Source: Nitrososphaera viennensis EN76 (GTDB lineage: Archaea > Thermoproteota > Nitrososphaeria > Nitrososphaerales > Nitrososphaeraceae). From it: DNA of 32,000 nt. Under the pieces are notes generated by a model. The model ran no database searches and was not told where the DNA came from. It was given only the letters and a program-made list of their open reading frames with translations. This document shows positions 5,712-22,017 of the stretch, in pieces; positions within the stretch are counted from its first letter, which is position 1, and each line of letters opens with the position of its first letter. A program made the translations under genes and the position numbers. The stretch lies in the NCBI RefSeq assembly GCF_000698785.1, contig NZ_CP007536.1:1200001-1232000 (forward strand), read 5' to 3'.

Positions 5712-6761
5712 TTGGCAACCACTACAGGCAAAGCTGCTATCACCATCGCAACTCTTGGCTCGCACTGCGCGCTGCAGGTGCTAAAGGGCGCAAAGGACGA
5801 GGGCTTTCGCACGCTCCTCGTGTGCGAGAAAAAGCGCGTCGGCCTTTACGAGAGGTTTGGCTTTATCGACGACATGATAATAGTGGACAAGTTTTCAGAG
5901 GTGGCCGGCGACAGGTGCAAGACAATACTGAAGAAAAAGAACGCGATCATCGTCCCGCACGGCACGCTCATATCGCAGATGTCAAGCGACGAGATTGAAA
6001 AAATCGAGACCCCGATCTTTGGCAACAAGTGGATACTGCGCTGGGAGGCCGACAGGGAGATGAAGCAGAAACTGATGGAAGAGGCCGGCCTGCGTACCCC
6101 AAGGCCCATAAAATCCAAGGACGACATCGACGGCCTCTGCATTGTGAAGCTGCACGGCGCCGCCGGCGGCAAGGGCTACTACCTTGCATGGAACCGCGAG
6201 AGCTTTGAGGAAGGCGCAAAGAGGCTCGTGCAGCAGGGCATGATAAGGGGTGAGCAGGACCTTTACATCCAGGAATTCATAAGAGGGGTGCCTGCGTACC
6301 TGCAGTACTTTTACTCGCCAGTGACAAAATCACTGGAGCTTTTGGGCGTCGACAGGCGCTACGAGTCTGACATTGACGGCATCGGAAGGATACCGGCCAG
6401 GCAGCAGCTGGGGGCAGGAGGCGAGCCTTCGTACACGGTCGTCGGCAACATACCACTCGTACTGCGAGAGTCGCTGCTTGACGAGGTGTACAGGATGGGC
6501 GAGGGCTTTTGCAGGGCCGCCGAGCGGCTGGTAAAACCGGGCATGCCGGGGCCGTTCTGCCTTGAAGGCGTGTACGACAGCGAGGGCAAGTTCACCACGT
6601 TCGAATTTTCTGCAAGAATAGTCGCGGGGACGAACCTGTACGTGGACGGCTCGCCGTACTCGGGCCTGCTTTACGACGAGCCAATGAGCATGGGCAGAAG
6701 AATTGCCCGCGAAGTCAAGGTTGCAAGGAAAAAGAACCGCCTTGCAAGCATTGTCACCTAG
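5712..6761 (+). CDS. purP: FAICAR synthetase (ATP-grasp, archaeal PurP)
   Basis: N-terminal ITIATLGSHCALQVLKGAKDEGF is the PurP signature, with ATP-grasp-like length and layout. TTG start with TATA GGATTTTAACC about 30 nt upstream. Confidence 0.9.
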   Translation: MATTTGKAAITIATLGSHCALQVLKGAKDEGFRTLLVCEKKRVGLYERFGFIDDMIIVDKFSEVAGDRCKTILKKKNAIIVPHGTLISQMSSDEIEKIETPIFGNKWILRWEADREMKQKLMEEAGLRTPRPIKSKDDIDGLCIVKLHGAAGGKGYYLAWNRESFEEGAKRLVQQGMIRGEQDLYIQEFIRGVPAYLQYFYSPVTKSLELLGVDRRYESDIDGIGRIPARQQLGAGGEPSYTVVGNIPLVLRESLLDEVYRMGEGFCRAAERLVKPGMPGPFCLEGVYDSEGKFTTFEFSARIVAGTNLYVDGSPYSGLLYDEPMSMGRRIAREVKVARKKNRLASIVT

Positions 6762-8619
6762 ACGCCTTTTTTCTTTGCACAAGCCGGACAACGGCAAGAG
6801 CCGCTGCGGCAGCCAGGGCGATCACGAACGCAGGCGTCGTTATTGACAGCACCTGCACAGAGCCTGCGGCAATTGCAACAAGCGTCGCGACCAGCGCGCC
6901 GGCCGCAACTATCGCGGCAATTGCGACAGTTCTCGAGTTGACCTTTTTCCTTGCCGCTATTGCCGCGCCGGCTGCCAACGGCGAAACATAGACAGCGCCT
7001 ATGAGCGTGCTTGCGACTGCGCCGGCAAGAATAGTTCCGCCTTCCCCTCCGCCCGCGCTTGAAAACGCCTGCTCTGACGCAAGCAATATCCCAAAGAGCG
7101 GGTACAGCGCGGCCTTGACTGTGGCCTGCAGCCACGGCTGCTCTCGCTCGTAATCTGCCACCTGCGGGCTGAACGAGTAATAGACCGCGTTAAATATGCT
7201 CATGAACGCCGAGCCGGACATCGATTTTAGCACATAGTTGTCCCTAAAACCGCGGAGGAATTGCACCTGCGGCGTCAGTTCAGAGCCAAACGCTGCTGTG
7301 GCGATGAGGCACCCGGAAGGCTGCTGCTGTTGTGTTGGTGTGGTGGCATTATTGTTGCTGTTGCCGCTTCCCTGCAGCACCACCACGTCTATCTGGGCCG
7401 ACTCGTTTTCGCCGTTTATCTTTTGCGCGGCCACGCGATAGTTGCCCGGCTCCAGAAACGTGTACTGTTCCGAGAACGTGCCCTGACCGGACGCAAGGTG
7501 CTTGCGGTAGACCTCCCGGCCGTCCTTTGTTATCACAAAGTCAAATGAAGCGTTCCTGACGAGGTCGCCCACGCTGTTGTCCTGAACGTTCATGACAAAC
7601 GTCGTCGGCGAGCCGGACTCTATCACCTCCGGCCCCCACGACATCTCCCACACGTACTTTTCTGTTGTGGAGAGCAGGTCAAGCGGGAACTTGGGCTTGT
7701 CTGCCGGCGCAAGCACAAAGTCCATCGTGTTGCCCGACCCCTTTACGCCAGTCAGCCTGTCGTTGTTGAGCACAAAGTGGACCACGCGCAGGCCCTCGTA
7801 CGAATAGTCGTCAATGAGCACCGCATCCGGAGGGAGCTCCTTGCCGTCGACAGAGCCGCGGTAGCCGTTTACCTGCAGCTCCTTTATGGCCTTTGGAAAC
7901 ATGACTTCCATGTGCACCAGCGGCACCTGCGAGACGTAGGAAGACGCCCAGTCAAACGGCATCGAAAAAGAGATCGAGTTTGTGTCCCTGTCGTATTCCA
8001 GGTTTGAAACGTCGGCATAGTAGGTCATGACCGACATCTTTTGGTCGCCCTCCGCGGTCTGGACGCTAAAGTCCTGCGTCTTTGAGACGCTGACGAACAG
8101 GTCAAACGTGCGGTCCGATTCGACCTGCAGGCCGGTGCTGGAGGTTTGCAGCGTGACTGACACCTTGTACAGCCCGCCGTCGGACATTATCCTGCTTCTT
8201 ATTTCCACGGGCGCGTCCTTGCTGACGTTTACCCTGCCGGGGCTTGCCTGGTCGTTTACCTGTGCCGCGTCCGCATTTGCGTCGGGCACGAGCTTTGCAA
8301 GAACGATGCCGTCTGACGAGCGGAACTCTTGGTCAAGGAGAGTGTTGTTGCCCTTTTCCACCACCACGCGGTAGTCGATGCCGCCGGCGATGGTAGAGTT
8401 GTTTCTAGGGTCAAGCGTCCTTATCGTAAGGGTAGGCGGAGACTTGCCTACGCTTTCGATAAAAGTCGGGGAAATGGATGCCTCAACAGCCACCTGCCTC
8501 CCGCCTATCGTCGTGGGAAGCGACTGGTCTGTGCCAAGGCCGTGGCCGTACGCGCCCAGTGTGGAGCTAAAAACCAGCGTCGCCAGCAAGAGGGGCGCAA
8601 GGTAACGCTTCACAGGCAA
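6754..8619 (-). CDS. Large exported protein: HGLG N-terminal module, thaumarchaeal PEFG-family ectodomains, and a C-terminal Cys-box with a multi-TM region
   Basis: Signal peptide ...FSSTLGAYG|HGLGTDQ. The domain VWEMSWGPEVIESGSPTTFVMNV...FDFVITKDGREVYRK...PGNYRV is paralogous to the ectodomains at 20085-21131. The box GCLIATAAFGSELTPQVQFLRGFRD (nt 7237-7311) is followed by about 3-4 hydrophobic helices and a tail RLVQRKKASR. Confidence 0.85.
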   Translation of the reverse strand: MPVKRYLAPLLLATLVFSSTLGAYGHGLGTDQSLPTTIGGRQVAVEASISPTFIESVGKSPPTLTIRTLDPRNNSTIAGGIDYRVVVEKGNNTLLDQEFRSSDGIVLAKLVPDANADAAQVNDQASPGRVNVSKDAPVEIRSRIMSDGGLYKVSVTLQTSSTGLQVESDRTFDLFVSVSKTQDFSVQTAEGDQKMSVMTYYADVSNLEYDRDTNSISFSMPFDWASSYVSQVPLVHMEVMFPKAIKELQVNGYRGSVDGKELPPDAVLIDDYSYEGLRVVHFVLNNDRLTGVKGSGNTMDFVLAPADKPKFPLDLLSTTEKYVWEMSWGPEVIESGSPTTFVMNVQDNSVGDLVRNASFDFVITKDGREVYRKHLASGQGTFSEQYTFLEPGNYRVAAQKINGENESAQIDVVVLQGSGNSNNNATTPTQQQQPSGCLIATAAFGSELTPQVQFLRGFRDNYVLKSMSGSAFMSIFNAVYYSFSPQVADYEREQPWLQATVKAALYPLFGILLASEQAFSSAGGGEGGTILAGAVASTLIGAVYVSPLAAGAAIAARKKVNSRTVAIAAIVAAGALVATLVAIAAGSVQVLSITTPAFVIALAAAAALAVVRLVQRKKASR

Positions 8620-8659
8620 AAGGGCGCATCAAGGCAAAATAAAGATTTGTAAAAGTACA

Positions 8660-8705
8660 GAAAGAAAAAGGAGGAAGAGAGTAGGAGCCGTGCATCTCTC
8701 CTACT
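8660..8705 (-). terminator. Hairpin plus U-rich tract downstream of gene 8701-9606
   Basis: Perfect 8-bp inverted repeat AGTAGGAG (8680-8687) / CTCCTACT (8698-8705) with a 10-nt loop, overlapping the stop codon. On the transcribed strand it is followed by CTCTTCCTCCTTTTTCTTTCT. Confidence 0.45.
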
Positions 8706-9606
8706 GAGTCATGTTGTTACCTGTCATGTTGCCAGACATGTCCATTGACGACTCCTCATCGTCATCGTGGCTCTCTGCTGCGTGGCCGTCCAGCGGGAGG
8801 TCAAACGCCTTTGCAAGGTTCTCGTGGACCTTGCCGTGCACGATCACGGTCACGCTTTCAAGGGACGCCCGGCTGTCGACTGCACTCTTTAGCTCGTTGA
8901 GGCCGGACCTGAGCGCGGCCATCGAGTCGGCCGAGCCATCCGGCGCGCCTGCGTTGAGCTTGTAGTACAGGCTCGATGCCTTTAGCGTGAGCCACTTGGC
9001 CGACTGGTATGCTGGCATGTTGACAATCTTGTCGTGCGCCTCTTCCGTGCTGCCAGTCATGTTCATGCTGCTGCCAGAGTGATCATGACTTCCTCCTTCT
9101 GCCATTCCGTAGGCACCCTGGTAGGATTCCAGAATTCCGTCCACCAGGTTTGCAAATACAAGAGCCCTTACCGTCGAGTTGGTCAGCTGGCCGCTGTCAA
9201 TCCTGACGGTGACGGTCTCGCCAAGCAGGCCGTTGATGTCTCTTATCTGCTGGACGATTTCAGACCTAGGGCTGTTGCCTTCAACAGAAGTCTTTAGCTT
9301 TTCCAGCGCCGCCGGGAGGTCCGTTCCAAGCCTCTGGTTCTTTTCAGATATTTCCTTGATGGTATCTGCGCTCAGGTGTCCTGCCGCATGCTCGGCGTGC
9401 TCTCTGGCAAGCTCGTGGTTGCCCATATAATTCCCGCCTACCAGCATGAGATGAATCTTTAATGTGTCCATGTTCGCAAGAAACGCGGCGCTTTCGTCGC
9501 CGGAGAAGTTGTGCGCAAACGCCCTCTGCCCTGCCGACGCGTAGGCCAGTCCTCCACCTACCATCATGGCGGCAAGCAAGAGCGCGGTGGTGCTTTTTCT
9601 TTCCAT
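8701..9606 (-). CDS. Exported helical His/Met-rich protein (putative metal, likely copper, binding)
   Basis: Signal peptide with cleavage at AYA|S or AFA|HNF. His cluster HELAREHAEHAAGH. Met/His tracts GGSHDHSGSSMNMTGS and C-terminal HAAESHDDDEESSMDMSGNMTGNNMTQ. Confidence 0.8.
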   Translation of the reverse strand: MERKSTTALLLAAMMVGGGLAYASAGQRAFAHNFSGDESAAFLANMDTLKIHLMLVGGNYMGNHELAREHAEHAAGHLSADTIKEISEKNQRLGTDLPAALEKLKTSVEGNSPRSEIVQQIRDINGLLGETVTVRIDSGQLTNSTVRALVFANLVDGILESYQGAYGMAEGGSHDHSGSSMNMTGSTEEAHDKIVNMPAYQSAKWLTLKASSLYYKLNAGAPDGSADSMAALRSGLNELKSAVDSRASLESVTVIVHGKVHENLAKAFDLPLDGHAAESHDDDEESSMDMSGNMTGNNMTQ

Positions 9607-9641
9607 AGATGTAGAAACCGGTCATCCTTTAATTAGGGTTC

Positions 9642-9657
9642 TAGTACACCGGCCGAA
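9642..9657 (+). promoter_or_regulatory. Motif copy 1: TAGTACA-CCGG-CCGAA
   Basis: Lies 36 nt upstream of ATG 9606. Read in the gene direction: TTCGG-ccgg-TGTACTA, 5 nt, CTAATTAAAGG (TATA), 21 nt, ATG. Confidence 0.6.
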
Positions 9658-9669
9658 GTAGTAGCAGTT

Positions 9670-10233
9670 TTAGATCTTGTTTCTAGAGTGCAAATAGACT
9701 GCAATGCCGGCGATAACTGCCGCCGCAGGCGTCACGTAGTATAGCAACAGCTCGTCAAGTGGTATGCCGGGCGGAAATGCGCTCACGTCAAAGCTTGCCA
9801 CAAGGGGCTGCGACGCGTATTTTGCATCGCCGGGGATGCGGGTCTGCACGGTCACGACGTAGCTTCCCGGCGTGTCAAACACATACCTTGTCGTGATGTC
9901 GCTTATCTCGTACAGGCGGTAGGGCTCCTGATGAATCGGGTTGCCCGTCTGCTTGTCCGCAATCACCACTGATGTGTAGACATTGTAGATGTTGTTGCCG
10001 TCGCTGGCAAGCACGCTAAAGTTGAGAGTCGAGTTGGTGCCGGTTATCGGGCTTGCAGGGTACGGCTGGAAGATTATCTGGTATCCGTCCACTTCCTTTG
10101 TGGTGCCGAAAAAGTGGGCGTACGCCGGCACAAAGAACATGCCTGTAAAAAAGAGCATGACGACTGCAAGGAAGTGCAGTGACAACAACAACAGCAGCAG
10201 CATCGGCCTGTTTTGGCGCTTTGCATATTTCAA
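9670..10233 (-). CDS. Exported, C-terminally anchored FixH/YtkA-like beta-sandwich protein
   Basis: Signal peptide ...FFVPAYA|HFFGT. Ig-like pattern VDGYQIIFQPYPASPITGTNSTLNFSV...PGSYVVTVQ. C-terminal TM helix plus SRNKI. The start may be TTG 10233 or ATG 10203. Confidence 0.75.
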   Translation of the reverse strand: MKYAKRQNRPMLLLLLLSLHFLAVVMLFFTGMFFVPAYAHFFGTTKEVDGYQIIFQPYPASPITGTNSTLNFSVLASDGNNIYNVYTSVVIADKQTGNPIHQEPYRLYEISDITTRYVFDTPGSYVVTVQTRIPGDAKYASQPLVASFDVSAFPPGIPLDELLLYYVTPAAAVIAGIAVYLHSRNKI

Positions 10234-10242
10234 CCATCATGC

Positions 10243-10258
10243 TGGTACATCTGCCGGA
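10243..10258 (+). promoter_or_regulatory. Motif copy 2: TGGTACA-TCTG-CCGGA
   Basis: Lies in the 157-nt gap upstream of gene 9670-10233, 10-40 nt from the candidate starts. Confidence 0.55.
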
Positions 10259-10390
10259 TGAACCACAACTACTAATATGCAAACAATGCGTAATCTACCC
10301 TGTAGCGCCAGTTCGCTGCAGAGAAAAAATGCATATGCCTGTTCATTGCACGGCGGGGAGAGCCTTTCTCCTCCCCTCCCTTCCGTGCCA

Positions 10391-10924
10391 TCAGGCTTGT
10401 TCCTTTGCCTTCTTTCTATTTCTGCGCATTATCACTATTGCGCCTGCAACTGCCGCCCCGGCAGCCCCGATCCCGGGCGCGACAGTGTAGAGGTAATAGT
10501 CGTTCTGGCCTGCCACGTCAAGTTCGAATATAAAAGTCAGGGTCTGGCCGCTGTAGGCGTTGTCTGTAAGGTCTGCATAAAGAACGTACCTGCCCGGCTC
10601 TGCAAAAGTGCGGTCGTACGCATAGTGGCCGTACGGGACTATTACCGGGCCGACCGCTGCGACTTCGGCGCCGTCCTTGACCAGCCTTATCTTTACCGGC
10701 ACGTCCACCAGGTCGTCGCCGTTGACGCCGGCAATCCTCATCACCACCTTTGCAGGCTCGCCGGCCACCAGCCTGGCCGGCTCGGTGGCGACCTCAAAGT
10801 CATAGTTGCCTAACCTCTGCTTGTACACGGCGTTCTTTAGCGGATCGGCAAACGCCGGCTGCGCGACCAGCAGGAAAATGGCCGCAAGAGCCACTGCGCA
10901 CGCAAGCGACTTTAACGACAGCAA
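10391..10924 (-). CDS. Exported, C-terminally anchored FixH/YtkA-like beta-sandwich protein
   Basis: Signal peptide ...VAQPAFA|DPLKN. Pattern YDFEVATEPARLVAGEPAKVVMRI...EPGRYVLYADL. C-terminal TM helix plus RRNRKKAKEQA. TTG start 8 nt after the regulator's stop codon. Confidence 0.75.
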   Translation of the reverse strand: MLSLKSLACAVALAAIFLLVAQPAFADPLKNAVYKQRLGNYDFEVATEPARLVAGEPAKVVMRIAGVNGDDLVDVPVKIRLVKDGAEVAAVGPVIVPYGHYAYDRTFAEPGRYVLYADLTDNAYSGQTLTFIFELDVAGQNDYYLYTVAPGIGAAGAAVAGAIVIMRRNRKKAKEQA

Positions 10925-11878: not shown

Positions 11879-11898
11879 TTTTGGCCTAATAAAGGGAT

Positions 11899-11914
11899 TG
11901 GTACAAAGCCAGAA
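11899..11914 (+). promoter_or_regulatory. Motif copy 3: TGGTACA-AAGC-CAGAA
   Basis: Read in the gene direction: TTCTG-gctt-TGTACCA, 5 nt, TTTATTAGG (TATA), 24 nt, ATG 11860. Confidence 0.6.
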
Positions 11915-13883: not shown

Positions 13884-14639
13884 CTACTTGTTGTTGCTGC
13901 CGCCGCGCCTTGCCATTGCCACAGCGCCTATGGCTATGCCCACTATGCCAAGGCCGATTCCCGCCCACGCCATGCCGCCATCACTTCCACCTGATGCTGC
14001 CGGCGGCGCCTTGACGGACGCAACGTCGCTCTGGACCTGCGCAATGGCCTTGCTCACGTCGTTGTTCTGCATGTATGGCTCGGGGAACCCTGCGTCGGTT
14101 CGCGACTCAAAGCAGCCATAGCCTCCGGCTACACCCTTTCTCACCACGCCTTCTGACACCGTGACGGCAGAGTTGTCTGGCTGCGCGCCAGCCTCGCCTG
14201 CAGGGGTGCACGAGAACGTGAGGTCGACCGGCGTGTTGTTTATCGTCCCGAATATGCGGTACGTGTACGTCGTCGCAATGGTCGGGTAGAACGGCGCGCT
14301 GTACTGGCCTGGCGAGTTGAAGACGGGCTCTAGTGGCATCTCTTTCTTTTTGTCCCCTGCGCCGATCTCAACCTTTAGTGTCTGCTCAAGGCCCGTGACA
14401 GGAGTCGCTCCTGCCGCGCGAGAGTTCATCGGGTCGCTCGGGTCTGCGTTGAGGACGCGAAGGTCAACCCCGGTCTTGTCGTCCACAAACGCAGGCTCGT
14501 TGAGCGAGCCTATCACTATCAAGTAGTCCTTGCCGCCTATCGTGTAGAGCTGGCGCTGGTGCGCATAGGCCGGCGCCGCAAAAGCGCCTGTCAAGAGGAG
14601 CGCTATCGCTACCCCAACCATAATTATTGCTAGTTTCAT
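13884..14639 (-). CDS. Exported, C-terminally anchored protein with a mature N-terminal His; tentatively YcnI/DUF1775-like
   Basis: Signal peptide ...GAFAAPAYA|HQRQLYTIGGKDYLIVIGSLNEP. The spacing from His1 to the N-E pair resembles the His1...VPNE spacing of YcnI. A C-terminal TM helix and basic tail match YcnI architecture. The gene lies immediately upstream of copCD. Confidence 0.8.
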   Translation of the reverse strand: MKLAIIMVGVAIALLLTGAFAAPAYAHQRQLYTIGGKDYLIVIGSLNEPAFVDDKTGVDLRVLNADPSDPMNSRAAGATPVTGLEQTLKVEIGAGDKKKEMPLEPVFNSPGQYSAPFYPTIATTYTYRIFGTINNTPVDLTFSCTPAGEAGAQPDNSAVTVSEGVVRKGVAGGYGCFESRTDAGFPEPYMQNNDVSKAIAQVQSDVASVKAPPAASGGSDGGMAWAGIGLGIVGIAIGAVAMARRGGSNNK

Positions 14640-14674
14640 GCAGGTATTGGAAGCTATAGAAAATTTAAGAAAAG

Positions 14675-14690
14675 TGGTACATTAGGCGAA
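14675..14690 (+). promoter_or_regulatory. Motif copy 4: TGGTACA-TTAG-GCGAA
   Basis: Read in the gene direction: TTCGC-ctaa-TGTACCA, 6 nt, TTAAATTT (TATA), 21 nt, ATG 14639. Confidence 0.6.
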
Positions 14691-14716: not shown

Positions 14717-17683
14717 TTAGCTCTGACCTTTCATCGCCATACGGACGTTGCGCTTCAGGTCTGTTGCGCTCTTGGCGTACATCATGGCGCTTATCGCTAT
14801 GCCAGCGGCTATCGCGGGCCCGGCAAGGTCGGCAAGCGAAAAGCCGACGTTTGTCACAGGGCTTGCCGTTTCTTCTGGCGCGCCTGCGCCTCCCGGCTGC
14901 TGCGGCGCCGGCGCGGAAGGCTTGGCCGTTATCGCGATGCTGCCAAGGGCTGATCCTTGCTGTTCTGCAAACCAGATCTTGCCCTTGTCGTCAGCGACCA
15001 AGTATTGAATGGTCGAGCCCGAGGTCGGTATCTTGGCCTCAGCACTTGCCCCTGTCCTTGGATCGAATACGGCGACCCGGTCTATTGTGTGCAGTGCAAC
15101 CCATATGTTGCCATAGCTGTCAGCCGCCATTCCAAAGGGCAGGCCGGCGTCGTTCAGGGCAGGATACTCGCGGAACGTCTCAAAGAGCGGGTTGAATGCC
15201 GTGACAGTGTGCCCTTCATGCTCGGTGACAAAGAGGTCGTGGCCGTTTGGATCAGGGAATATGGAAGTAGGTATTATGAGCTTGTTCTGGCCCTTTGGCG
15301 CGTATTCCGTGATGTTGCCAGTTGCAGGATCTATGATTGCGATCTTGCCTACCGCCGATTCTGGCATCCACAGGTTGCCATTACGGTCTACCGATAGAGC
15401 TACAGGTCCGGAGTTGGGCGACGGTATATCTATTGCAGAGAATTTTTCAGAGCGTGGGTCAAACTTGAAGACTTTGTTTGGCTGAGACACTGGCATCCAC
15501 AGGTTGCCATTGCGATCTATTGCAAGACCTGTTGCTATGCCGTTTTCTGACAGTTGGAATTTGCGGTCTTGCTTTGTTTGTGGGTCGTACTGCCCAAGAT
15601 ATGATGGCAAGGATGTTGACGGTGGCGGCGGGCTAATATACCACAACTTGCCGTCGCTGCCAAGTGCCACCATTGTGACAAGGTTGGCACTATCTGGACG
15701 GCTGCTCAATTTGTGTACCGTATAGTTGCCTGTAGCAGTGTCAAATTGGAATATTCTGCTTGAACCCGGATTCGTGTCGCCGACCCATATCGACTGACGA
15801 GCCGCGTCGAATACAGGGTACAACAAGAGGCTCTTTTCCGGCGTCTTGTACTCCTTGACCTCAAATCCGAGGCTCGATATCGCCGGCCTTACAGTGACGT
15901 CAAGGCTTGCGACGATGTTTGACGCGGAGGAGCGCACGCCTTCCACCTGGATAGACCACACGCCCGGCAGGCTGAAAGCCGCGTCTGCGGCAAACGTGCC
16001 GTCCTGCTGGCGCGTCGTGTTGATGCTTATCGGGCCTATCCCCTTTTCGACCTGCGTAAGCTTTATCGTTGCAGCGCTGACGTCTGTAGCAGGCTTGTTG
16101 TCACTGCCAGCGAACGCAAGCGTGAACCTGTTCTGGCCCACGGCAAACGGGTCCACCGCGAGGTTTACCTTGCCGTCAGGAGCGTACAGCGTCTGGGTGA
16201 ATTTTGTGGATGCGGCAGCGGCTGTCTGCTGCGTGGCGGCAAACGCTTCCTGCGAATCCTGTGGCTTGCCGTACTGCGGGAACTCGCCGGCGGGAAGCGA
16301 GCTGTTGGCCATTATGGACACCATCAGGAGCAGCGCTATGCCGACGCCGGCCTCTGCCTTCAAGCTCTTGGCAAAGCGCCCATAGCCGTTTGACTGGACT
16401 GAAGAGCCCCCTACCATTGCGACCGTCGCCTTTTTCTGTATCACAAACTGCGAGTATCCGCCCATTGCGACCATCACGCCGGCAAGGCCCAGCTTGATCG
16501 CAAGGACCTTGCCGTACGTGGACGCAAGCGTCAATGAAAGGTCGCTCTCGATGAGGAAAAGCAAGAGAGGACCGGTTATGATCGCAATGCCAAGTATCGT
16601 GACCACTATTGTGGAAAAGCGCGGTATCAGGATTGAGATCGCTGCGGCCCTTGCGCGCTCGTCAGGCATCGCAAGGATCTTTGGCACTGCCACAAAGCCC
16701 ATCAGTATCAGGCCGCCTATCCAGATGCTTGCGGCGGTGTTGTGGAAAAAGTCAAGCAGGATTGCAGTTATCTGTCCGGTGGCCGCGCCATGCGCTATCA
16801 GGCTTGACGTCACGAGCACCGCAAGGCCCATTACGAGTATCGCAAGCATCTCGGCCCTGCTTGGGAGCGCGCCGGTCCGGGTCAGCTTGCGGTACACAAA
16901 CACAGCGATTATCATTAGGATGGACGACTCGATCATGCGCGTCGTCCAGACGTTGCCAAACTTGGTCGCTATCGCCTGGGCTATCCCCGCGTTGATGTCG
17001 ATCGCCTGCACGGCTATCATGGCAAAGTTTGAGCCAATCACGATGGCCGCGCCGATTATGATGAGTTTTACCATCTTCCGGTCGATTGCGGCGCGCTGGG
17101 AGGATATTGCGCCTGCAAGCCATGGCACGCGCGCAAGCGGCTTCCACAGCCACAGCGAGCCAAACGCCGCGCCCACAACTATCACCTGCCCGACCATGCC
17201 GGGGAACCTTGACGCCGACTCTAGTGGAGACAGGATCTGCGAGGGTGGCGTCGCAGGGCCCGCGCCAGGCGTTACGGCGGTGCCTATCCCAAACGTAAAG
17301 GCGCTTTCTACCACGTGGCCGTCAACTGCGGAAAGCACTCTTGTGGTGACGGTGTAGATGCCGTCAGGCAAGCCCGGCTGCAGTGAAACTCCAAGGGTCT
17401 GGGTGTCGCCTCCCACGTTGTGGGGGTCGTTCTTGTCGACCCGCGCTCCGTCAGGGGCAAGCACCGACATCGTGCTGTACGAGAGCTCTATCGGCTCTGT
17501 GAACGTGACCGTCACCTCTGCCGGCGAGGAAGACAAGCTCTGAAACGGTTTGGGAGAAGAGCTTACTGTTATCGGGTGTGCAAAGGACTGCTGCTGCGGC
17601 GGCATGCCTGCAATGGCGAGCGTCGCCACTACCATGGCAACGGCAACGACGTACAGCAGTGACTGTGGCCGGCCAGACAACAC
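14717..17683 (-). CDS. CopC-CopD-Ig-like fusion extended by a beta-propeller (NHL / streptogramin-lyase-like) and a C-terminal TM anchor
   Basis: Signal peptide ...PPQQQSFA|HPITVSSSP. CopC motif SAVDGHVVESAFTFG. About 8-10 CopD TM helices. Ig-like domain VNLAVDPFAVGQNRFTLAF...GVWSIQV. The propeller blades carry repeated D(R/S)xGNLW(M/V) motifs: DRNGNLWMP twice, DSYGNIWVA, DDKGKIWFA, GSDGKLWYI. The terminal TM helix is IAAGIAISAMMYA. Confidence 0.9.
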   Translation of the reverse strand: MLSGRPQSLLYVVAVAMVVATLAIAGMPPQQQSFAHPITVSSSPKPFQSLSSSPAEVTVTFTEPIELSYSTMSVLAPDGARVDKNDPHNVGGDTQTLGVSLQPGLPDGIYTVTTRVLSAVDGHVVESAFTFGIGTAVTPGAGPATPPSQILSPLESASRFPGMVGQVIVVGAAFGSLWLWKPLARVPWLAGAISSQRAAIDRKMVKLIIIGAAIVIGSNFAMIAVQAIDINAGIAQAIATKFGNVWTTRMIESSILMIIAVFVYRKLTRTGALPSRAEMLAILVMGLAVLVTSSLIAHGAATGQITAILLDFFHNTAASIWIGGLILMGFVAVPKILAMPDERARAAAISILIPRFSTIVVTILGIAIITGPLLLFLIESDLSLTLASTYGKVLAIKLGLAGVMVAMGGYSQFVIQKKATVAMVGGSSVQSNGYGRFAKSLKAEAGVGIALLLMVSIMANSSLPAGEFPQYGKPQDSQEAFAATQQTAAAASTKFTQTLYAPDGKVNLAVDPFAVGQNRFTLAFAGSDNKPATDVSAATIKLTQVEKGIGPISINTTRQQDGTFAADAAFSLPGVWSIQVEGVRSSASNIVASLDVTVRPAISSLGFEVKEYKTPEKSLLLYPVFDAARQSIWVGDTNPGSSRIFQFDTATGNYTVHKLSSRPDSANLVTMVALGSDGKLWYISPPPPSTSLPSYLGQYDPQTKQDRKFQLSENGIATGLAIDRNGNLWMPVSQPNKVFKFDPRSEKFSAIDIPSPNSGPVALSVDRNGNLWMPESAVGKIAIIDPATGNITEYAPKGQNKLIIPTSIFPDPNGHDLFVTEHEGHTVTAFNPLFETFREYPALNDAGLPFGMAADSYGNIWVALHTIDRVAVFDPRTGASAEAKIPTSGSTIQYLVADDKGKIWFAEQQGSALGSIAITAKPSAPAPQQPGGAGAPEETASPVTNVGFSLADLAGPAIAAGIAISAMMYAKSATDLKRNVRMAMKGQS
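15361..15511. repeat. Intragenic blade repeat: a 22-nt perfect repeat one blade (129 nt) apart
   Basis: CTGGCATCCACAGGTTGCCATT occurs at 15361-15382 and 15490-15511. Both copies encode the NGNLWMP blade motif. Confidence 0.85.
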
Positions 17684-17727
17684 GATCGTAATACGCGCCG
17701 GACCATATTTGACTCTTGCTTACTTTA

Positions 17728-17743
17728 TGGTACAAATCCCGAA
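17728..17743 (+). promoter_or_regulatory. Motif copy 5: TGGTACA-AATC-CCGAA
   Basis: Lies 45 nt upstream of GTG 17683. Read in the gene direction the motif abuts CATAAAGTAAG, and a second TATA-like AAATAT lies about 25 nt from the start. Confidence 0.6.
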
Positions 17744-17781
17744 CTGGAATCTTGAGTACAAATCCCGAACTGGAATCTTGA
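17730..17781 (+). repeat. Perfect 26-bp tandem duplication (two units), containing motif copies 5 and 6
   Basis: GTACAAATCCCGAACTGGAATCTTGA occurs at 17730-17755 and again at 17756-17781. Confidence 0.95.
17754..17769 (+). promoter_or_regulatory. Motif copy 6: GAGTACA-AATC-CCGAA (within the tandem duplicate)
   Basis: This is the second unit of the 26-bp tandem repeat. Confidence 0.5.
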
Positions 17782-17872
17782 TTTGTGGCTAATTACCTTG
17801 TAACTAGACCCACAGTTACCGTCGTACCAATGCCATGAAAAGGGTCGAGTATTATAGCATGGCACGATTCAT

Positions 17873-17882
17873 GTTTTAAACC
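17873..17882 (+). promoter_or_regulatory. Consensus TATA box GTTTTAAACC with no ORF downstream
   Basis: The same 10-mer forms the predicted TATA boxes of fbp (24841-24850) and ppdK (28503-28512). Here the next listed ORF start is about 300 nt away. Confidence 0.45.
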
Positions 17883-17908
17883 TTCTCACAAGATTACGGT
17901 AAAGATAT

Positions 17909-17924
17909 TTTACGGCTTTACGGC
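17909..17924 (+). repeat. Tandem 8-mer TTTACGGC (two units)
   Basis: Perfect duplication located at the predicted transcription start for the orphan TATA box. Confidence 0.8.
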
Positions 17925-17995
17925 AAATTTAATTAGCAGCGCTTACCACAGGTTACCATACGTTACGTTAAACCTAGGGTAAAACTTGACGCAAA

Positions 17996-18065
17996 GTAGC
18001 AGGTGGCTCTCACGCTCAGCGACCCTCGCTGATGGGTTGGGCGTGTTGGCCGGGCCACCTGCTAT
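17996..18065 (+). ncRNA. GC-rich structured element: long outer stem enclosing an inner hairpin; candidate small RNA or DNA structural site
   Basis: AGCAGGTGGC (17998-18007) pairs perfectly with GCCACCTGCT (18054-18063), extendable by T17997-A18064. The inner hairpin is TCAGCG-ACCCT-CGCTGA (18016-18032). It is a GC-rich patch inside AT-rich DNA and is flanked by paired TTACCA(C/T)A boxes. Confidence 0.3.
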
Positions 18066-18153
18066 TACTTCTGACTGCCTGTACTGATTTTAAACATTGC
18101 TGTCTTTACCATATTTTACAGTAATTTACCACATGCTCGAAAGGTAACAAAAT

Positions 18154-18213
18154 GTATGCCAAAGTATGCTAGAGTATGCAAAGGCATGCTAGAGTATGCA
18201 AAAACATGTTGAA
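18154..18213 (+). repeat. Six 10-bp-phased units built on GTATGC
   Basis: GTATGC starts at 18154, 18164, 18174 and 18194. GCATGC starts at 18184 and ACATGT at 18204. A 20-bp higher-order unit (18164-18183 against 18184-18203) is 18/20 identical. Confidence 0.85.
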
Positions 18214-18274
18214 AGAACTGCACGGGTGCGGCGGGCGAAAAGCTGCAGCAATAAAGTCATATAACAAGGCCATA

Positions 18275-18691
18275 ATGTCCAAGTCAATGTCTGTACTCGA
18301 TTACCTGCTTCATCATAGCACTGCCAGTTCTTCTATTCTAGTAGCGTTAGCGGTAGGTATTTTTACAATTTTGACACTGTTTACTCAAGTTGCTATTGGC
18401 TCATTTGCGTGGATAGTATTGTCAATCACCTATGTATTTACTTGTATTGCCGGCATTCTCATATTTCGCAATTGGGCCGTTGCAGAAATATTGTTACGTC
18501 ACTTCTCACAAGAGAATACAGGCGATACCGAAGTAAACCTGCATGCAATAGTCGGCGAAAGCAAGATAAGAAAGATGTTCTTTTTTGAACCATTTGCTAA
18601 CAAAGATACATTTTATCTGGCAGCGCTAATCGTGATTGTTTTCTTGGCTATCATCATTTGGGCTGCTTTTGCATTTCAACTCTACCACTAA
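18275..18691 (+). CDS. Small 3-TM membrane protein, unknown function (island ORF)
   Basis: MSKSMSVLDYLLHHSTASSSILVALAVGIFTILTLF... has three hydrophobic helices. The track start at 18176 would translate the GTATGC repeat array, so I prefer ATG 18275. The start remains uncertain. Confidence 0.5.
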   Translation: MSKSMSVLDYLLHHSTASSSILVALAVGIFTILTLFTQVAIGSFAWIVLSITYVFTCIAGILIFRNWAVAEILLRHFSQENTGDTEVNLHAIVGESKIRKMFFFEPFANKDTFYLAALIVIVFLAIIIWAAFAFQLYH

Positions 18692-18830
18692 CACCGTGGC
18701 CAGCATTTCACCAATCGTCATGAATGGGTCCATTGTGACAAGATTGGCACCCCTACGCACCTTGTAGTACCTTTCAAGGCGTTGTCGCACCCGTGCGCTT
18801 TTTATTCAAGCATATCTTTTTGCAGTATGA

Positions 18831-19265
18831 TTGTCATCTAACAAGAGCCAAGTCGATTTTGACTGTCCGTGGTGTGGCAAGTATCAAAGTAAACAGGTTT
18901 ACAACGGTGCAGAAACCGAGACGATTTGTTCAGAATGCAAAAAGCTCGTTGGTATTATTACAGATGCAACAGGCAAGCCTATAGTCATAGCCACAAAGGT
19001 GCATAAGTCAACGCTAACACTAAGCCCAGAAATGGCCGAGACCAAGCTCGGTAAGACCGAGGCCGATATTGAGAAGGCAAGAAAGGAGGCAGAAAGACGC
19101 GGTTTGGTGGTTGAAAGCAAAGTCTACGGTGCTGCGATTGAAATCATAGACAGATTGCGTGATCAGTTGAAACAACAAGACGAAATGTCGAAAGAAATTA
19201 TGAGATTGAAAGAACAAATCGAATTGCTTAACAAACGTATCGAGCTTTATAGAATACTCAAATGA
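18831..19265 (+). CDS. Zinc-ribbon plus coiled-coil protein (island ORF)
   Basis: CPWC-x17-CSEC zinc ribbon, then a long heptad-like C-terminus (EADIEKARKEAERRG...LKQQDEMSKEIMRLKEQIELLNKRIELY). The TTG start is supported by TATA CTTTTTATTC about 29 nt upstream. Confidence 0.6.
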   Translation: MSSNKSQVDFDCPWCGKYQSKQVYNGAETETICSECKKLVGIITDATGKPIVIATKVHKSTLTLSPEMAETKLGKTEADIEKARKEAERRGLVVESKVYGAAIEIIDRLRDQLKQQDEMSKEIMRLKEQIELLNKRIELYRILK

Positions 19266-19339
19266 TATCATATCTGGACGGACCTATTTTGACATTTCAA
19301 GCGAGTCAGATTCAGAAACCAACTAAGAATATTCAGTTG

Positions 19340-19355
19340 TGGTACAAATCCCGAA
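19340..19355 (+). promoter_or_regulatory. Motif copy 7: TGGTACA-AATC-CCGAA
   Basis: Lies 40 nt upstream of ATG 19396 and about 13 nt upstream of TATA GATTATAAGC. It is in the opposite orientation relative to its gene compared with copies 1-6. Confidence 0.55.
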
Positions 19356-19395
19356 CAATCATCAAAGATTATAAGCACTGCAAGATAATTTTTCC

Positions 19396-20088
19396 ATGAT
19401 GCTGATGAAAAAAGCCGCCCTTGCTCTTGCACTTGCAGTCCCGATCATCTTGCTTGCTGGACTTCCTGTTCGTCCAGCGTATGCCCACACCTCCACGGTG
19501 GCAGGCGACATCAAGATGGAGTTAGGCTGGGGAACAGAGCCCCCGCTTCTTGGGCAGATGAACACTGTCGTGGTTGAGGTGACGAGAGTCTCTGACGGCA
19601 AGCCGGTCGCAAACGCCTTTGCGTCTGCAAAATTGACCGTGATAAAGGGCGGCGACAGCAAGGACCTCGAAGTCCTTCCTGGAGAGGCTGCCGGCCTCTA
19701 TGTCGCGCAGATAATCCCGACGCAGCTTGGCCAGATAACGGCGAGCATAACAGGCACCATCGCCGGCCAGCAGGTGAACAACAGCGTCCAGATAGAAGAC
19801 GTAGAAGACACCAAGACGCTCAACTTCCCCGCGTCAAGCAACCCGAACCAGGGCGTCCCGCAGGACTTTGTAAACCAGATGCGCACGACCATATCCGACC
19901 TGACCGGCCAGATTGACGCTGCCAAGACGTCCGCGCAGAACGCAACCGACGCGGCTCAAAAGGCTGCTCAGGATGTTGAAGCGATAAAGGCAGAAGCCGA
20001 CAGGGCTTACCTGATTGGCATGACAGGCATCGGAGTGGGGGTCGCAGGCATCGCCATTGCAGCCCGCTCCCTTTCCCGCAAGGCCTAA
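19396..20088 (+). CDS. Exported protein with a mature N-terminal His, a beta-sandwich domain, a coiled coil and a C-terminal TM anchor
   Basis: Signal peptide ...LPVRPAYA|HTSTVAGDIKMELGWGTEPPLLGQMNTVVVEV, paralogous in pattern to 13884-14639 and 9670-10233. The Ala/Gln-rich helix is DAAKTSAQNATDAAQKAAQDVEAIKAEADRA. The TM helix is followed by RSLSRKA. Confidence 0.85.
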   Translation: MMLMKKAALALALAVPIILLAGLPVRPAYAHTSTVAGDIKMELGWGTEPPLLGQMNTVVVEVTRVSDGKPVANAFASAKLTVIKGGDSKDLEVLPGEAAGLYVAQIIPTQLGQITASITGTIAGQQVNNSVQIEDVEDTKTLNFPASSNPNQGVPQDFVNQMRTTISDLTGQIDAAKTSAQNATDAAQKAAQDVEAIKAEADRAYLIGMTGIGVGVAGIAIAARSLSRKA

Positions 20089-20618
20089 AAAATTTTCTTT
20101 ATTTTCTTTATCCTTGTGGCGACGACTGCCCCGGTCATCACTGCCGCGGCGACTGCGCCCAGCGCGCCTACAGGGAACTCGGGCGTAACACTGATGGAAA
20201 GGTCGGTGTGCTCGGGCGTTATCGGTACCGGAGGCAGGCCGAGGCCAAGAAGCTCAACCCTCACAGTGTATTGACCGTTCTGTGGGAACTTGTACGGCAC
20301 GCTCAGAGTTCCTTCCACGTTGTGCAGCAACGGCTGGTTGGTCTGCTTTGAAGCGCGGAACACCTCGTTGCCGTTCTGGATGATCACAACGTCATAGTCC
20401 TGATGCTGATGAAGAGTTGTAGTGCCAGGATTGAAAAAGCTCACGTTGAGTTTGGCGTTTCCGTCATCGGACCATTCAGGCGTGATCGCGATGTCAAGGC
20501 TTTTGCCACCAGCTGGCGCTCCCGTTTGCGCATACGCGGCAGGGATCACTGCAAACCCTGCGGCCAGGATTGCGGCAAGTGCGATAGAAAGGTATAGCGT
20601 TGTAGACGACATCATCAT
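20085..20618 (-). CDS. PEF-CTERM exported protein (thaumarchaeal PEFG family ectodomain)
   Basis: Signal ...VIPAAYA|QTG. Ectodomain motif YDVVIIQNGNEVFR...GQYTVRV. Tail VTPEFPVGALGAVAAAVMTGAVVATRIKKIKKIF. I prefer the ATG cluster at 20612-20618, preceded by GGTG, over the track's TTG 20639. Confidence 0.85.
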   Translation of the reverse strand: MMMSSTTLYLSIALAAILAAGFAVIPAAYAQTGAPAGGKSLDIAITPEWSDDGNAKLNVSFFNPGTTTLHQHQDYDVVIIQNGNEVFRASKQTNQPLLHNVEGTLSVPYKFPQNGQYTVRVELLGLGLPPVPITPEHTDLSISVTPEFPVGALGAVAAAVMTGAVVATRIKKIKKIF

Positions 20619-20648
20619 CACACCTAATGCCCCGGCCAAGGTAATAAA

Positions 20649-21131
20649 TTATGACCTCTTCCGGAACTTTGCGCCGAAAATCGTCGCAAGCGCGATGCCC
20701 GCGGCTGCCGCAATCGCGGCTGGCGCAAACTCGGGCGTTACCCTAACATCAAAGTCGGCCCCCTCGCCAAGGCCGTCTATGTTTGCAATCCTGATGGTGT
20801 ACGGCCCTTCCGTGGAAAACGCCACGGCCTGCACACTTGCGGCCTGCGACTGCCGGTGCACCGCTTCCTGGCCGCTTGCCGAGACTACGATAAAGTCGTA
20901 GGTGATGTCCTCCAGCTCCCTGCCGGTCTCCGGCTCGACAAATTTTATCTCAAAGGTATTGTCGGCGCCAATGTCTGCCTGCGTCCACCACATCCTTACC
21001 AGAAACGTCCCCTGATCGCTTGCAGACTCGAGCATGGCCAGACCATTGTCATTGTCGTTCTGTGCAAAGGCAGGCTGCAGAAAAGGTATGAGCAGAAAAA
21101 ATGCTGCGAAAAACACTAGCACGGATGACAT
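20649..21131 (-). CDS. PEF-CTERM exported protein (thaumarchaeal PEFG family ectodomain)
   Basis: Signal ...LQPAFA|QND. Ectodomain MWWTQADIGADNTFEIKF...YDFIVVSASGQEAVHR...GPYTIRI. Tail VTPEFAPAAIAAAAGIALATIFGAKFRKRS. Confidence 0.85.
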   Translation of the reverse strand: MSSVLVFFAAFFLLIPFLQPAFAQNDNDNGLAMLESASDQGTFLVRMWWTQADIGADNTFEIKFVEPETGRELEDITYDFIVVSASGQEAVHRQSQAASVQAVAFSTEGPYTIRIANIDGLGEGADFDVRVTPEFAPAAIAAAAGIALATIFGAKFRKRS

Positions 21132-21189
21132 TTTCAGGCAGTTCTAATAATAAAGTATTGTTGGGAAAAGAAAAGGAAAGGGAGCGGCC

Positions 21190-22017
21190 TTATAGCCTAA
21201 ACCCAAAGGCCTGCCCCTTGAAGCGCGCGACGCCTATCACTGCCACAAGCGATGCCGCAAGCACAAGCGCTGCAATCACGCCAAACTCTGGCACGACCAT
21301 AGTTCCGGTGATGTCAACCGACGTAGCGCCGGCCGGTGCCGTGAACTTTATCGTCGTCGAGTCTGTCGAGTTCGTTGACGTAAATTGCACAGTCTGGCCG
21401 TTTGCGGTGACACTCTGTATGCCATCTATCATGGCCTTTGGCAGCGTCACTTCCATTTCGCCGGCTTTGTCAAAAGCCACGTTGACCGACTCGCCTGCGG
21501 TGATAGTTGCAGCAGTCACCTTGGAGGTTGCAGACTTGCTGGTCACTGTGTAGCTCTTGCCGTCAAGCTGGGCTGTGGCTGTTCCTTCCTGCATCGTCGC
21601 AGTTCCGTTGCCACCAGTGCTGCCGCCTGCAGCCGCTACTGTGAGCGTGCCTACCATTGCAGGGTGGAGCGAGCAAAAGTACGGATATTCTCCTGCTTCT
21701 GTCGGCTTGAACTCAAGAGTCTTGGTCGGCGGAATGAGCACCGGGGTGCCGTCAGGCTTTTCGCCGAACTTGCCGTCCGGGGTCCCGCCTGAACCGGACT
21801 CTACAGTGTGCAGAGCGCCATCTTTGTTGGTCCAAATCACAGTATCTCCCACGTTGGCTTGGGCCGGGTTTGGAGAAAACGCGTCGTTTGTCTTGGTCGA
21901 CGCTCCCGGCACAATGGTGATGTTGACGGTCGCTGCAAAGGCTGCCTGGCTAGGGATAGCCAATACGGCCGCCAAAATAGCCGCCATGCCTGCAGCTAGT
22001 GCTATCTTTGCGTTCAT
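21190..22017 (-). CDS. Blue (type 1) copper protein, plastocyanin-like, with a second domain and a PEFG-CTERM tail
   Basis: I place the start at ATG 22017 (MNAKIALAAGMAAILAAVLAIPSQAAFA|ATV). Copper ligands: GALHTV (His) and YFCSLHPAMVG (Cys-x2-His-x2-Met). Tail VVPEFGVIAALVLAASLVAVIGVARFKG. The track's extension to 22149 overlaps the divergent gene. Confidence 0.9.
   Translation of the reverse strand: MNAKIALAAGMAAILAAVLAIPSQAAFAATVNITIVPGASTKTNDAFSPNPAQANVGDTVIWTNKDGALHTVESGSGGTPDGKFGEKPDGTPVLIPPTKTLEFKPTEAGEYPYFCSLHPAMVGTLTVAAAGGSTGGNGTATMQEGTATAQLDGKSYTVTSKSATSKVTAATITAGESVNVAFDKAGEMEVTLPKAMIDGIQSVTANGQTVQFTSTNSTDSTTIKFTAPAGATSVDITGTMVVPEFGVIAALVLAASLVAVIGVARFKGQAFGFRL

Follow-up and report, generated by a model that had tools for sequence, protein, structure and literature searches.

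Gene content, copper response and promoter box of the locus

The window analysed here, 32,000 nucleotides (nt) from the genome of Nitrososphaera viennensis EN76 (contig NZ_CP007536.1, positions 1,200,001 to 1,232,000; all coordinates below are those of the window), holds the CopC/CopD copper-uptake neighbourhood of this soil ammonia-oxidising archaeon. The nitrification carried out by ammonia-oxidising archaea in most soils and oceans depends on copper enzymes. At present no better candidate than this locus exists for the copper-uptake machinery of the soil lineage, and it has already been flagged experimentally: the cluster is real and has been described, including its induction by copper limitation and a promoter box (Reyes et al. 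2020, PMC7785015). Its genes are NVIE_014240 to NVIE_014370, labelled G1-G15 in our analysis (Table 1). The order in the window, which matches NVIE_014230 to NVIE_014400 in Dataset S1 of PMC7785015 one for one, is purP, four unknowns, an ArsR regulator (G5), a small membrane protein (G6), a CopC/CopD protein (G7), an exported unknown (G8), a second CopC/CopD protein (G9), two unknowns, three exported unknowns, plastocyanin, a periplasmic binding protein, S10 and EF-1alpha. The same gene order is found on CP103305.1 and CP104300.1, and the 251-amino-acid (aa) product of G8 is 100% identical to P0001 of N. viennensis.

As the initial annotation had stated, the minus strand holds nine open reading frames (ORFs) between 17683 and 6754. 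It had also counted 13 exported or anchored proteins. The four further exported proteins at 19396-22017 were found, but G5 is cytoplasmic, so that the number is at most 12 of 13. Intergenic distances suggest the transcription units G9, G8-G7, G6-G5-G4, G3, G2, G1 and G12, with gaps of 23 nt between G8 and G7, 1 nt between G6 and G5 and 8 nt between G5 and G4. Given the 23-nt gap, G7 is probably co-transcribed with G8.

Table 1. Genes and promoter boxes of the locus, with log2 fold changes under copper limitation
Feature	Locus tag	Positions	Strand	log2 fold change	Remark
G1	NVIE_014240	6754-8619	minus	+0.11	not significant
G2	NVIE_014250	8701-9606	minus	+2.64	reaches a log2 RPKM (reads per kilobase per million) of 14.4, among the region's highest
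G3	NVIE_014260	9670-10233	minus	-0.03	not significant
G4	NVIE_014270	10391-10924	minus	+1.55	exported B-domain protein, C-terminal transmembrane anchor; 8-nt gap to G5; linked by iterative profiles with G1c, G3 and G13
G5	NVIE_014280	10933-11451	minus	+2.47	
G6	NVIE_014290	11453-11860	minus	+2.72	
G7	NVIE_014300	11929-13860	minus	+2.68	copC/D_a
G8	NVIE_1457	13884-14639	minus	+2.80	
G9	NVIE_014310	14717-17683	minus	+2.20	copC/D_b
G12	NVIE_014340	19396-20088	plus	+1.44	
G13		20085-20639	minus	+0.69	marginal
G14		20649-21131	minus	-0.46	slightly down
G15	NVIE_014370	21190-22017	minus	-0.57	cupredoxin; slightly down
Gene pair outside the cluster	NVIE_014210, NVIE_014220	4289-5630	plus	+4.75, +4.59	strongest induction nearby
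Two boxes upstream of G9		17726-17743, 17752-17769	minus		published consensus
Box upstream of G6-G5-G4		11897-11914	minus		published consensus
Box upstream of G12		19338-19355	minus		inverted relative to gene; published consensus, as reported for NVIE_014340
Weaker box upstream of G8		14673-14690	minus		TTCGCCTAATGTACCACT; window scan
Weaker box variant upstream of G2		9640-9657			window scan
Weaker box upstream of G3		10241-10258			window scan

Copper-dependent expression was already on record for the locus. The fold changes in Table 1 were taken from Dataset S1 of PMC7785015, for which Cu(II) had been chelated with TETA, and show a clear induction in only 8 of the 13 genes, namely G2, G4-G9 and G12. 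The reading of the whole cluster as one dedicated copper system thus holds for its copper-linked, induced core, but not for G1, G3, G14 and G15, which are not induced, nor for G13 with its marginal response. The boundaries first drawn mix regulon members with bystanders: G1, G3, G13, G14 and G15 are not members of the regulon, their common ground with it being domain family or neighbourhood only. The cupredoxin G15 is a highly expressed neighbour. The strongest response nearby was that of NVIE_014210 and NVIE_014220 (Dataset S1, PMC7785015), outside the cluster as first delimited. NVIE_014210 encodes a membrane-anchored protein in which a cytoplasmic N-terminal domain and a transmembrane helix are combined with an Ig-like domain of the CarboxypepD_reg type (Pfam); the product of NVIE_014220 is a membrane protein similar to DUF7475 (Pfam).

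NVIE_014250 to NVIE_014310 are also strongly induced in biofilms (Dreer et al. 2025, PMC12448741), which the authors ascribed to Cu scarcity in the matrix; they named NVIE_014290 (G6) a putative cation channel. Neither PMC7785015 nor PMC12448741 mentions YcnI, YtkA or a pattern of N-terminal histidines. The central claims of the initial annotation are already in the literature. Its presentation of the accessory set as a discovery was overstated, as cluster, copper response and promoter box have been in print since 2020 (PMC7785015). The finding is genuine and biologically important, and for the accessory components the annotation still gives, as claimed, no function. What remains new are the uncharacterised N-terminal-His families and the G6-G5 pair.

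The published box, 5'-TTCSGSMTTTGWACYANT-3', was reported twice before NVIE_014310, on the opposite strand upstream of NVIE_014340, and before NVIE_014290, which is co-transcribed with the ArsR gene NVIE_014280 (PMC7785015). The shared promoter motif of the initial annotation was confirmed: our scan recovered the published consensus at the published promoters, with 4 matches against 0.06 expected by chance. The box has the form TTCG-n5-TGTACCA and is also written TTCGGGATTTGTACCA. At the G9, G8-G7, G6-G5-G4, G2 and G12 units it lies about 10-15 nt upstream of an A/T-rich, TATA-like element. A position just upstream of the A/T-rich promoter element is typical of archaeal activators. Every induced transcription unit has a box, and Cu chelation raises the expression of these units 3- to 7-fold. 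G3 is the sole box-bearing unit without induction; G1, G13, G14 and G15 have no box and stand outside the response. In the window scan no box was found upstream of NVIE_014210/NVIE_014220. Since these genes are the most induced and yet lack the box, a second control must exist. Both G9 boxes are created by a perfect 26-bp tandem duplication at 17730-17781 (two copies of GTACAAATCCCGAACTGGAATCTTGA); a third copy, at 19342, has only the first 15 nt in common.

A position weight matrix built from all seven window sites was circular and was discarded; the weaker sites are backed instead by conservation at orthologous promoters. In about 20 related loci the box precedes the G8 orthologue by 36-78 nt, and in about 15 it precedes that of G6 by 29-66 nt. 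Of 68 box matches in 677 kb of related loci, about 37 are G9/G12 sites or lie 30-80 nt upstream of G8, G6 and G2 orthologues.

A scan with the G8 alignment, with one genome per species, yielded 58 loci, nearly all from Nitrososphaeraceae (Nitrososphaera, Nitrosocosmicus and further genera). Downstream of G8 the sequence is long enough in 48 of these loci, and in 38 of the 48 a CopC/CopD gene of the same orientation begins within 900 nt. G6/G5 were present in 24 and G2 in 16 of the 58 loci. The full order G1-G15 is kept in only one other Nitrososphaera metagenome-assembled genome (L006), so that synteny is conserved for a core of G8-CopCD, G6-G5 and G2 but not for the 13-gene set. In nine loci (L015, L018, L022, L025, L034, L036, L043, L046 and L059) the gene after G8 encodes CopD alone, with separate coding of CopC and the YtkA-like domain; the CopCD fusion is therefore not universal in Nitrososphaeraceae. 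In some of these lineages (L015, L018, L022, L025) the importer is split into a CopD gene and a convergent CopC-YtkA gene. Two G8 paralogues flank CopCD in L021, L026, L027, L054 and L056 (G8a-CopCD-G8b-G6-G5), with a box before G6. A trio of G8-like, B-domain (see below) and 1054-aa CopC-CopD-(Filamin/YtkA-like) genes occurs at L049 9854-14314, on a 1.35-Mb contig binned as Ignavibacteriota with LigD neighbours (see also L051), which suggests that the module exists in bacteria or was transferred.

Protein families and the N-terminal histidine

Two CopC-CopD fusions had been proposed, and G7 and G9 indeed scored above the Pfam cut-offs for both domains. For CopC (PF04234, gathering score 23.3 bits) the matches were E = 2.5e-10 with 41.7 bits in G7 and E = 1.1e-17 with 65.2 bits in G9; for CopD (PF05425, cut-off 32.1) they were E = 3.7e-19 with 69.5 bits and E = 3e-11 with 44.1 bits, respectively. 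The CopD region had no sequence relative among PDB structures. It is followed by a match to YtkA below the cut-off of 25.9 bits (G7 1.7e-3, 19.4 bits; G9 2.6e-4, 22.0 bits), in a region that is conserved in 38 CopCD homologues. G7 is composed of a predicted signal peptide (AFG/H, the slash marking the cleavage site), CopC, CopD, the YtkA-like domain and a C-terminal transmembrane helix; G9 (SFA/H) has the same order with a beta-propeller of the Vgb-lyase type (Pfam Vgb_lyase, E = 2.4e-29) before the last helix. The best PDB sequence match of the G7 CopC domain was the CopC domain of B. subtilis YcnJ (9c14, E = 9e-6), and its His1 and D-G-H align with those of 9c14 and of Methylosinus CopC (5icu). 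Both proteins have the signature of the Cu(II)-only (C0-1) type of CopC, AFG/HAVP...LDDGH in G7 and SFA/HPIT...VDGH in G9 with predicted cleavage, and no Met-rich Cu(I) site. G7 and G9 thus appear to keep the CopC Cu(II) histidine-brace signature, a mature N-terminal His plus D-x-H.

G8 is an exported beta-sandwich protein with a predicted mature N-terminal His27, a helical stalk and a C-terminal transmembrane anchor. Invariant among 26 homologues are A26-H27, E48, D53, D54, C144 and C176, and in the AlphaFold2 model the beta-sandwich core has a predicted local distance difference test (pLDDT) score above 90. The family comprises 1075 cluster representatives at E ≤ 1e-3. One distant member, P0340, is fused to a C-terminal DUF305, a four-helix His-rich domain. 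G12, a paralogue of G8, combines an N-terminal-His beta-sandwich with a stalk that resembles an alanine zipper and with a transmembrane anchor; H31, W45, E48, P49 and P50 are invariant in its family. About 20 residues after the His, G8 and G12 have in common a G-x-x-x-E-P loop, the only low-confidence stretch within the domain in the G8 model. Regarding the residues of a mono-histidine brace, the N-terminal His and the Glu of this EP loop are invariant in both proteins, an invariant Trp (W45) in G12 only. Taken together the G8/G12 family forms at least 1,000 clusters at 50% identity, found in Nitrososphaeraceae and on bacterial-type contigs, and has no Pfam or NCBIfam model. By its scores the G12 stalk (residues about 150-205) resembles a coiled coil of the alanine-zipper/Lpp type (Ala_zip_lipo of NCBIfam, 0.0029; in homologues, Alanine_zipper of Pfam), which hints at an oligomeric, possibly trimeric display of the head domain.

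Iterative profile searches among the ORFs of the fetched loci joined G3, G4, G13, G14 and residues 308-420 of G1 in an Ig-like family, here called the B-domain, and G8 and G12 in a second one. In profile-profile comparisons (hhalign) the G8 family matched the G12 family with 99% (E = 3.7e-18), G12 the B-domain with 92.8% (E = 4e-7), the N-terminal domain of G1 the B-domain with 95.5%, and the B-domain the YtkA-like region of CopCD with 71% (E = 3.7e-5). Among G12 homologues 5 of 10 matched Pfam YtkA (PF13115) at E ≤ 1, the best with 5.7e-5 and 24.1 bits against the cut-off of 25.9, and one has the NCBI name 'FixH family protein'. Of 22 B-domain sequences, 4 matched YtkA below the threshold (best 9.7e-4). 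Pfam FixH (PF05751) was not matched by the free-standing domains of G3, G4, G8, G12, G13, G14 and G1. A hidden Markov model (HMM) of the YtkA-like region from the 38 CopCD homologues, searched HMM-to-sequence against the free-standing proteins, found only G14 at E = 1.7, so that this link is seen in profile-profile comparison only. Judged by these comparisons the free-standing Ig-like proteins appear to form one superfamily, distantly YtkA-like and with about 10 such domains in the cluster, a grouping that is new here. The recurring FixH/YtkA-like Ig domain of the initial annotation is thus reasonable on the grounds of the profile-profile links, but in Pfam it stays below threshold.

On the other hand, no YcnI-like protein was found by Pfam, PDB sequence search or Foldseek, contrary to the initial annotation. 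No cluster protein matched DUF1775 in Pfam at E ≤ 0.1, and at E ≤ 10 none of 26 members of the G8 family did. YcnI was not matched among PDB sequences by the profiles of G8, G12 or the B-domain, the G8 profile having no PDB match at all; and the G8 model had no significant Foldseek match in the PDB, with YcnI not among the top matches. G8 as a member of YcnI/DUF1775 was rejected after these searches.

A canonical [AS]-[YF]-[AG] site ends the hydrophobic leader in eleven exported proteins of the cluster, and in seven of them the next residue is His: G1 (AYG/H), G2 (AFA/H), G3 (AYA/H), G7 (AFG/H), G8 (AYA/H), G9 (SFA/H) and G12 (AYA/H), all predicted sites. Histidine is rare at position +1. A home-made cleavage predictor for the +1 background placed sites wrongly even in known families and was discarded. 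The N-terminal His is invariant in the G8, G12 and G2 families and present in 4 of 4 G3 orthologues; in 119 of 123 G8 representatives the small-x-small/H site is kept, 15-26 residues before the EP loop. The apparent pattern of His after cleavage in seven proteins is new here. In the CopC domains among them this residue is the known ligand of Cu(II). A free N-terminal His defines the CopC histidine brace and the YcnI mono-histidine brace (PMC12154828). For this reason we infer Cu(II) binding for the N-terminal-His proteins, the signature suggesting Cu(II) histidine-brace sites in three uncharacterised families.

One of these is G2, an exported and very highly expressed protein that had been noted as His/Met-rich and helical. 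This description proved apt: it contains 13 His and 15 Met, in part in His/Met-rich linkers and tail, and is all-alpha in a confident AlphaFold2 model (pLDDT 80, 204 residues above 90). Next to the predicted mature N-terminal His32, A31-H32-x-F34-x-x-D37 is invariant in the family, within the motif H-x-F-x-G-D-E, and H257 and H261 are nearly so. Searches of Pfam and of PDB sequences gave no match to G2. Foldseek with the model gave non-significant matches only, to EfeO/Algp7 (E 0.37-0.94, TM about 0.3) and to cytochrome bd subunits; EfeO (7wgu) and Algp7 (5y4c, 3at7) were the only metal-binding proteins among the top matches. With these imelysin-like (M75) proteins G2 has in common that it is exported, all-alpha and built of two bundles, and that His and acidic residues are conserved, yet its hallmark is the invariant N-terminal H-x-F-x-G-D-E and not an HxxE motif. 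We regard the weak resemblance of the model to EfeO as no more than a lead. The majority of G2 homologues end in PEFPLP plus a transmembrane archaeosortase-type anchor (alignment A2). N. viennensis G2 ends in a soluble His/Asp/Met-rich tail (HAAESHDDDEESSMDMSGNMTGNNMTQ, window 8701-8790) that recalls the EEEHSHHH tail of CtaK.

The initial annotation had further listed a membrane protein paired with a regulator, and G6 is directly followed by the ArsR/winged-helix protein G5. G6 is a small membrane protein with about 4 transmembrane helices, in which five His (H38, H41, H47, H51 and H116) as well as E91 and E113 are invariant among 20 orthologues. G5 is cytoplasmic and consists of two winged-helix domains, ArsR/HTH_5 and an HVO_0163 N-terminal HTH (Pfam HTH_24 1.9e-15, HTH_5 5.8e-15, HTH_HVO_0163_N 1.3e-11); with 55.3 bits against a cut-off of 22 for HTH_5 it counts as an ArsR/SmtB winged-helix protein. 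It contains 1 Cys and 4 His. G6 orthologues are always followed by G5, and in about 15 genomes the pair has the box at its own promoter. The induction of G5 under metal limitation suggests a logic other than the metal-dependent release from DNA of ArsR/SmtB proteins, and G6 is a candidate metal sensor or channel.

The exported members outside the copper response are of related build. G1 has a predicted signal peptide, two B-type Ig domains with a middle domain between them, a CFI-box-CTERM (residues 437-508; NCBIfam NF041770, 4.7e-22, 77.6 bits against a cut-off of 40) and a hydrophobic tail. G3 is a B-domain protein with a predicted mature N-terminal His (AYA/HFFG) and a transmembrane anchor. 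G13 and G14 are B-domain proteins that by eye end in PEF plus a transmembrane helix, i.e. an archaeosortase-type anchor, with no match to PEFG-CTERM in NCBIfam. The G13-like subfamily keeps H-x-D-Y-D and L-H motifs (HxDYD...LH; alignment A3) that have no counterpart in other B-domains and might constitute a separate metal site. G15 was confirmed as a type 1 cupredoxin by profile matches (Pfam Cupredoxin_1 1e-9, 38.8 bits against 27; Copper-bind 6.3e-9, 36.6 bits against 21.2) and the ligand pattern H...C-x2-H-x2-M (GALHTV...YFCSLHPAM); it matches PEFG-CTERM (TIGR04296) with 27.5 bits against an NCBIfam cut-off of 25.

A probable copper-limitation regulon and competing explanations

The closest characterised system is ycnKJI of B. 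subtilis, comprising the repressor YcnK, the importer YcnJ and the DUF1775 Cu(II) chaperone YcnI. YcnJ is needed under copper limitation imposed by TETA and requires His24 of CopC and a His of CopD; YcnI and the CopC domain of YcnJ exchange Cu(II), and the YtkA domain of YcnJ overlaps functionally with CtaK in CuA assembly (PMC12154828, PMC13344008). The archaeal locus resembles it in the induction by copper limitation, in a central protein of the order CopC-CopD-YtkA (YtkA here being sub-threshold), in the Cu(II) site of CopC from N-terminal His and DxH with YcnJ as best PDB match of G7 CopC, in an adjoining small membrane-tethered beta-sandwich with a mature N-terminal His, and in a dedicated transcription factor within the cluster. 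It differs in that the tethered partner G8/G12 groups with YtkA-like domains and not with DUF1775, and in that a double winged-helix regulator, paired with a His-rich membrane protein, takes the place of YcnK. There are also two CopCD paralogues, one with a beta-propeller, the extra helical G2 and many extra Ig-like paralogues, and the host is an archaeon with an S-layer pseudo-periplasm. By analogy the archaeal core most plausibly works in the same way.

Two further systems are similar in part. Like CtaK (YtkA) and FixH-like E-set domains, the Ig-like proteins are free-standing, membrane-tethered extracytoplasmic beta-sandwiches, and CtaK/YtkA is implicated in copper delivery. CtaK has conserved His/Met and a His-rich C-terminal tail, to which His motifs of G2 and partly of the G13 subfamily are comparable. 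Yet the anchor is a C-terminal transmembrane helix or archaeosortase signal here and an N-terminal lipid there, and YtkA is not described as having the N-terminal His that is invariant in G8, G12 and G3. Proteobacterial CopC/CopD and the YobA-YebZ-YebY (AZY) operon of E. coli likewise have CopC and CopD domains implicated in copper uptake, with a Cu(II)-only CopC. There, however, the two are separate proteins without YtkA, whereas they are fused here, and the third partner, YebY/DUF2511, is unrelated.

Our best explanation, which we consider fairly probable, is a copper-limitation regulon around the two CopC-CopD genes that combines Cu(II) capture and transfer with control by G6-G5. Extracellular Cu(II) would be captured by tethered or secreted N-terminal-His proteins, i.e. 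G8, G12, the abundant helical G2 and possibly G3, and handed to the CopC domains of G7 and G9, a scheme modelled on YcnI, YcnJ and CtaK of Bacillus. Copper might then pass through CopD across the membrane or via the YtkA-like domains to extracytoplasmic cuproenzymes. G6 with its five invariant His may sense or conduct copper at the membrane and control G5, the likeliest factor to act at the box, which would autoregulate its own operon.

Several points weigh against this explanation. The YtkA assignments are below the Pfam gathering score, and the fold class of G8 rests on profile comparisons, as the best Foldseek match in the PDB was not significant (E = 0.0096). The cleavage sites that place the His first were predicted by the -3/-1 rule. 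The box-like site of G3 is not accompanied by induction, and NVIE_014210/NVIE_014220 show the strongest induction without a box in the scan, so that a single regulator at a single box cannot explain the whole response. The direction of CopD transport, here taken as import, is debated even in bacteria, and everything beyond domain content and expression is our own reading of these data.

A more far-reaching proposal is made tentatively, with less than even confidence in it as a whole: G8/G12 would be an unrecognised extracytoplasmic Cu(II)-binding family, G2 a second N-terminal-His binder, and G6-G5 a new membrane-coupled copper-starvation switch acting at TTCG-n5-TGTACCA. In that case G8/G12 would be built on a YtkA-like beta-sandwich with an independently acquired mono-histidine brace (His and EP-loop Glu) and would be the archaeal functional counterpart of YcnI. 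In any case our re-analysis turns the exported unknowns into testable hypotheses, namely a YcnJ-type importer, an N-terminal-His signature, and the box with its G6/G5 switch.

The transfer to extracytoplasmic enzymes might also be the chief function. The module would then mainly metalate cuproenzymes such as ammonia monooxygenase (AMO), plastocyanins, multicopper oxidases and haem-copper oxidase, with the YtkA-like proteins as insertion chaperones of the CtaK/PCuAC type. The support of CuA assembly outside the membrane by CtaK and by the YtkA domain of YcnJ, the about 10 YtkA-superfamily domains in the cluster and the adjoining cupredoxin gene are in line with this, and CopC was also proposed as an assembly chaperone by Reyes et al. 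(PMC7785015). Yet neither the cupredoxin nor the two B-domain genes next to it follow the regulation of the CopCD core, and the requirement for a CopD His in Bacillus argues for passage through the membrane. We regard metalation as the main role as rather unlikely; metalation and membrane uptake are not mutually exclusive. The original naming of CopC/CopD would make the cluster a copper-resistance system for detoxification or sequestration. Apart from the Pfam names one can adduce that ArsR-type regulators usually de-repress on metal excess and that the His/Met-rich tail of G2 could buffer excess copper. However, chelation of Cu(II) with TETA makes expression of the genes rise rather than fall, the Cu(II)-only CopC domains lack a Met-rich Cu(I) site, copA/copB partners are absent, and P-type ATPase exporters are encoded elsewhere. 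Resistance is thus very improbable, and it was rejected because of the induction by chelation.

The accessories may, on the other hand, have nothing to do with copper handling and be surface or biofilm-matrix components for adhesion or envelope remodelling, linked with CopCD only by gene neighbourhood and a common stress regulon. The region belongs to the genes classed as bona fide biofilm-induced (PMC12448741), the B-domains give generic Filamin/PKD/Big matches, archaeosortase-type anchors (PEFG-CTERM, CFI-box-CTERM) are typical of surface proteins, and no metal ligand is invariant across the whole B family. But it is difficult to see why an adhesin should have the invariant N-terminal His of G8, G12, G2 and G3, which is the hallmark of the Cu(II) sites of CopC and YcnI. 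Moreover, G8 keeps its place beside CopCD in the 38 of 48 loci, bacterial-type contigs included, and the copper scarcity to which the biofilm study attributes the induction points the same way (PMC12448741). We consider a pure surface function distinctly improbable.

Neighbouring genes and intergenic features

Between G9 and G12 the cluster is broken up by G10 and G11 (18176-19265), which are unrelated and show no copper response, and by a low-GC spacer. The segment 17780-19340 has a GC content of 0.43 as opposed to about 0.57 and holds G10, a membrane protein, and G11, a zinc ribbon plus coiled coil. A PHROGs search of both gave zinc-ribbon-level matches only, and neither Rfam nor a tRNA scan gave a match in the window. 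The start codon of G10 is overlapped by five 10-nt units (GTATGCnnnn) that follow one another head to tail at 18154-18203. In L006 and L040 the G9 and G12 orthologues are adjacent and divergent with one common box; the low-GC segment therefore looks like an insertion into a shared G9/G12 promoter region.

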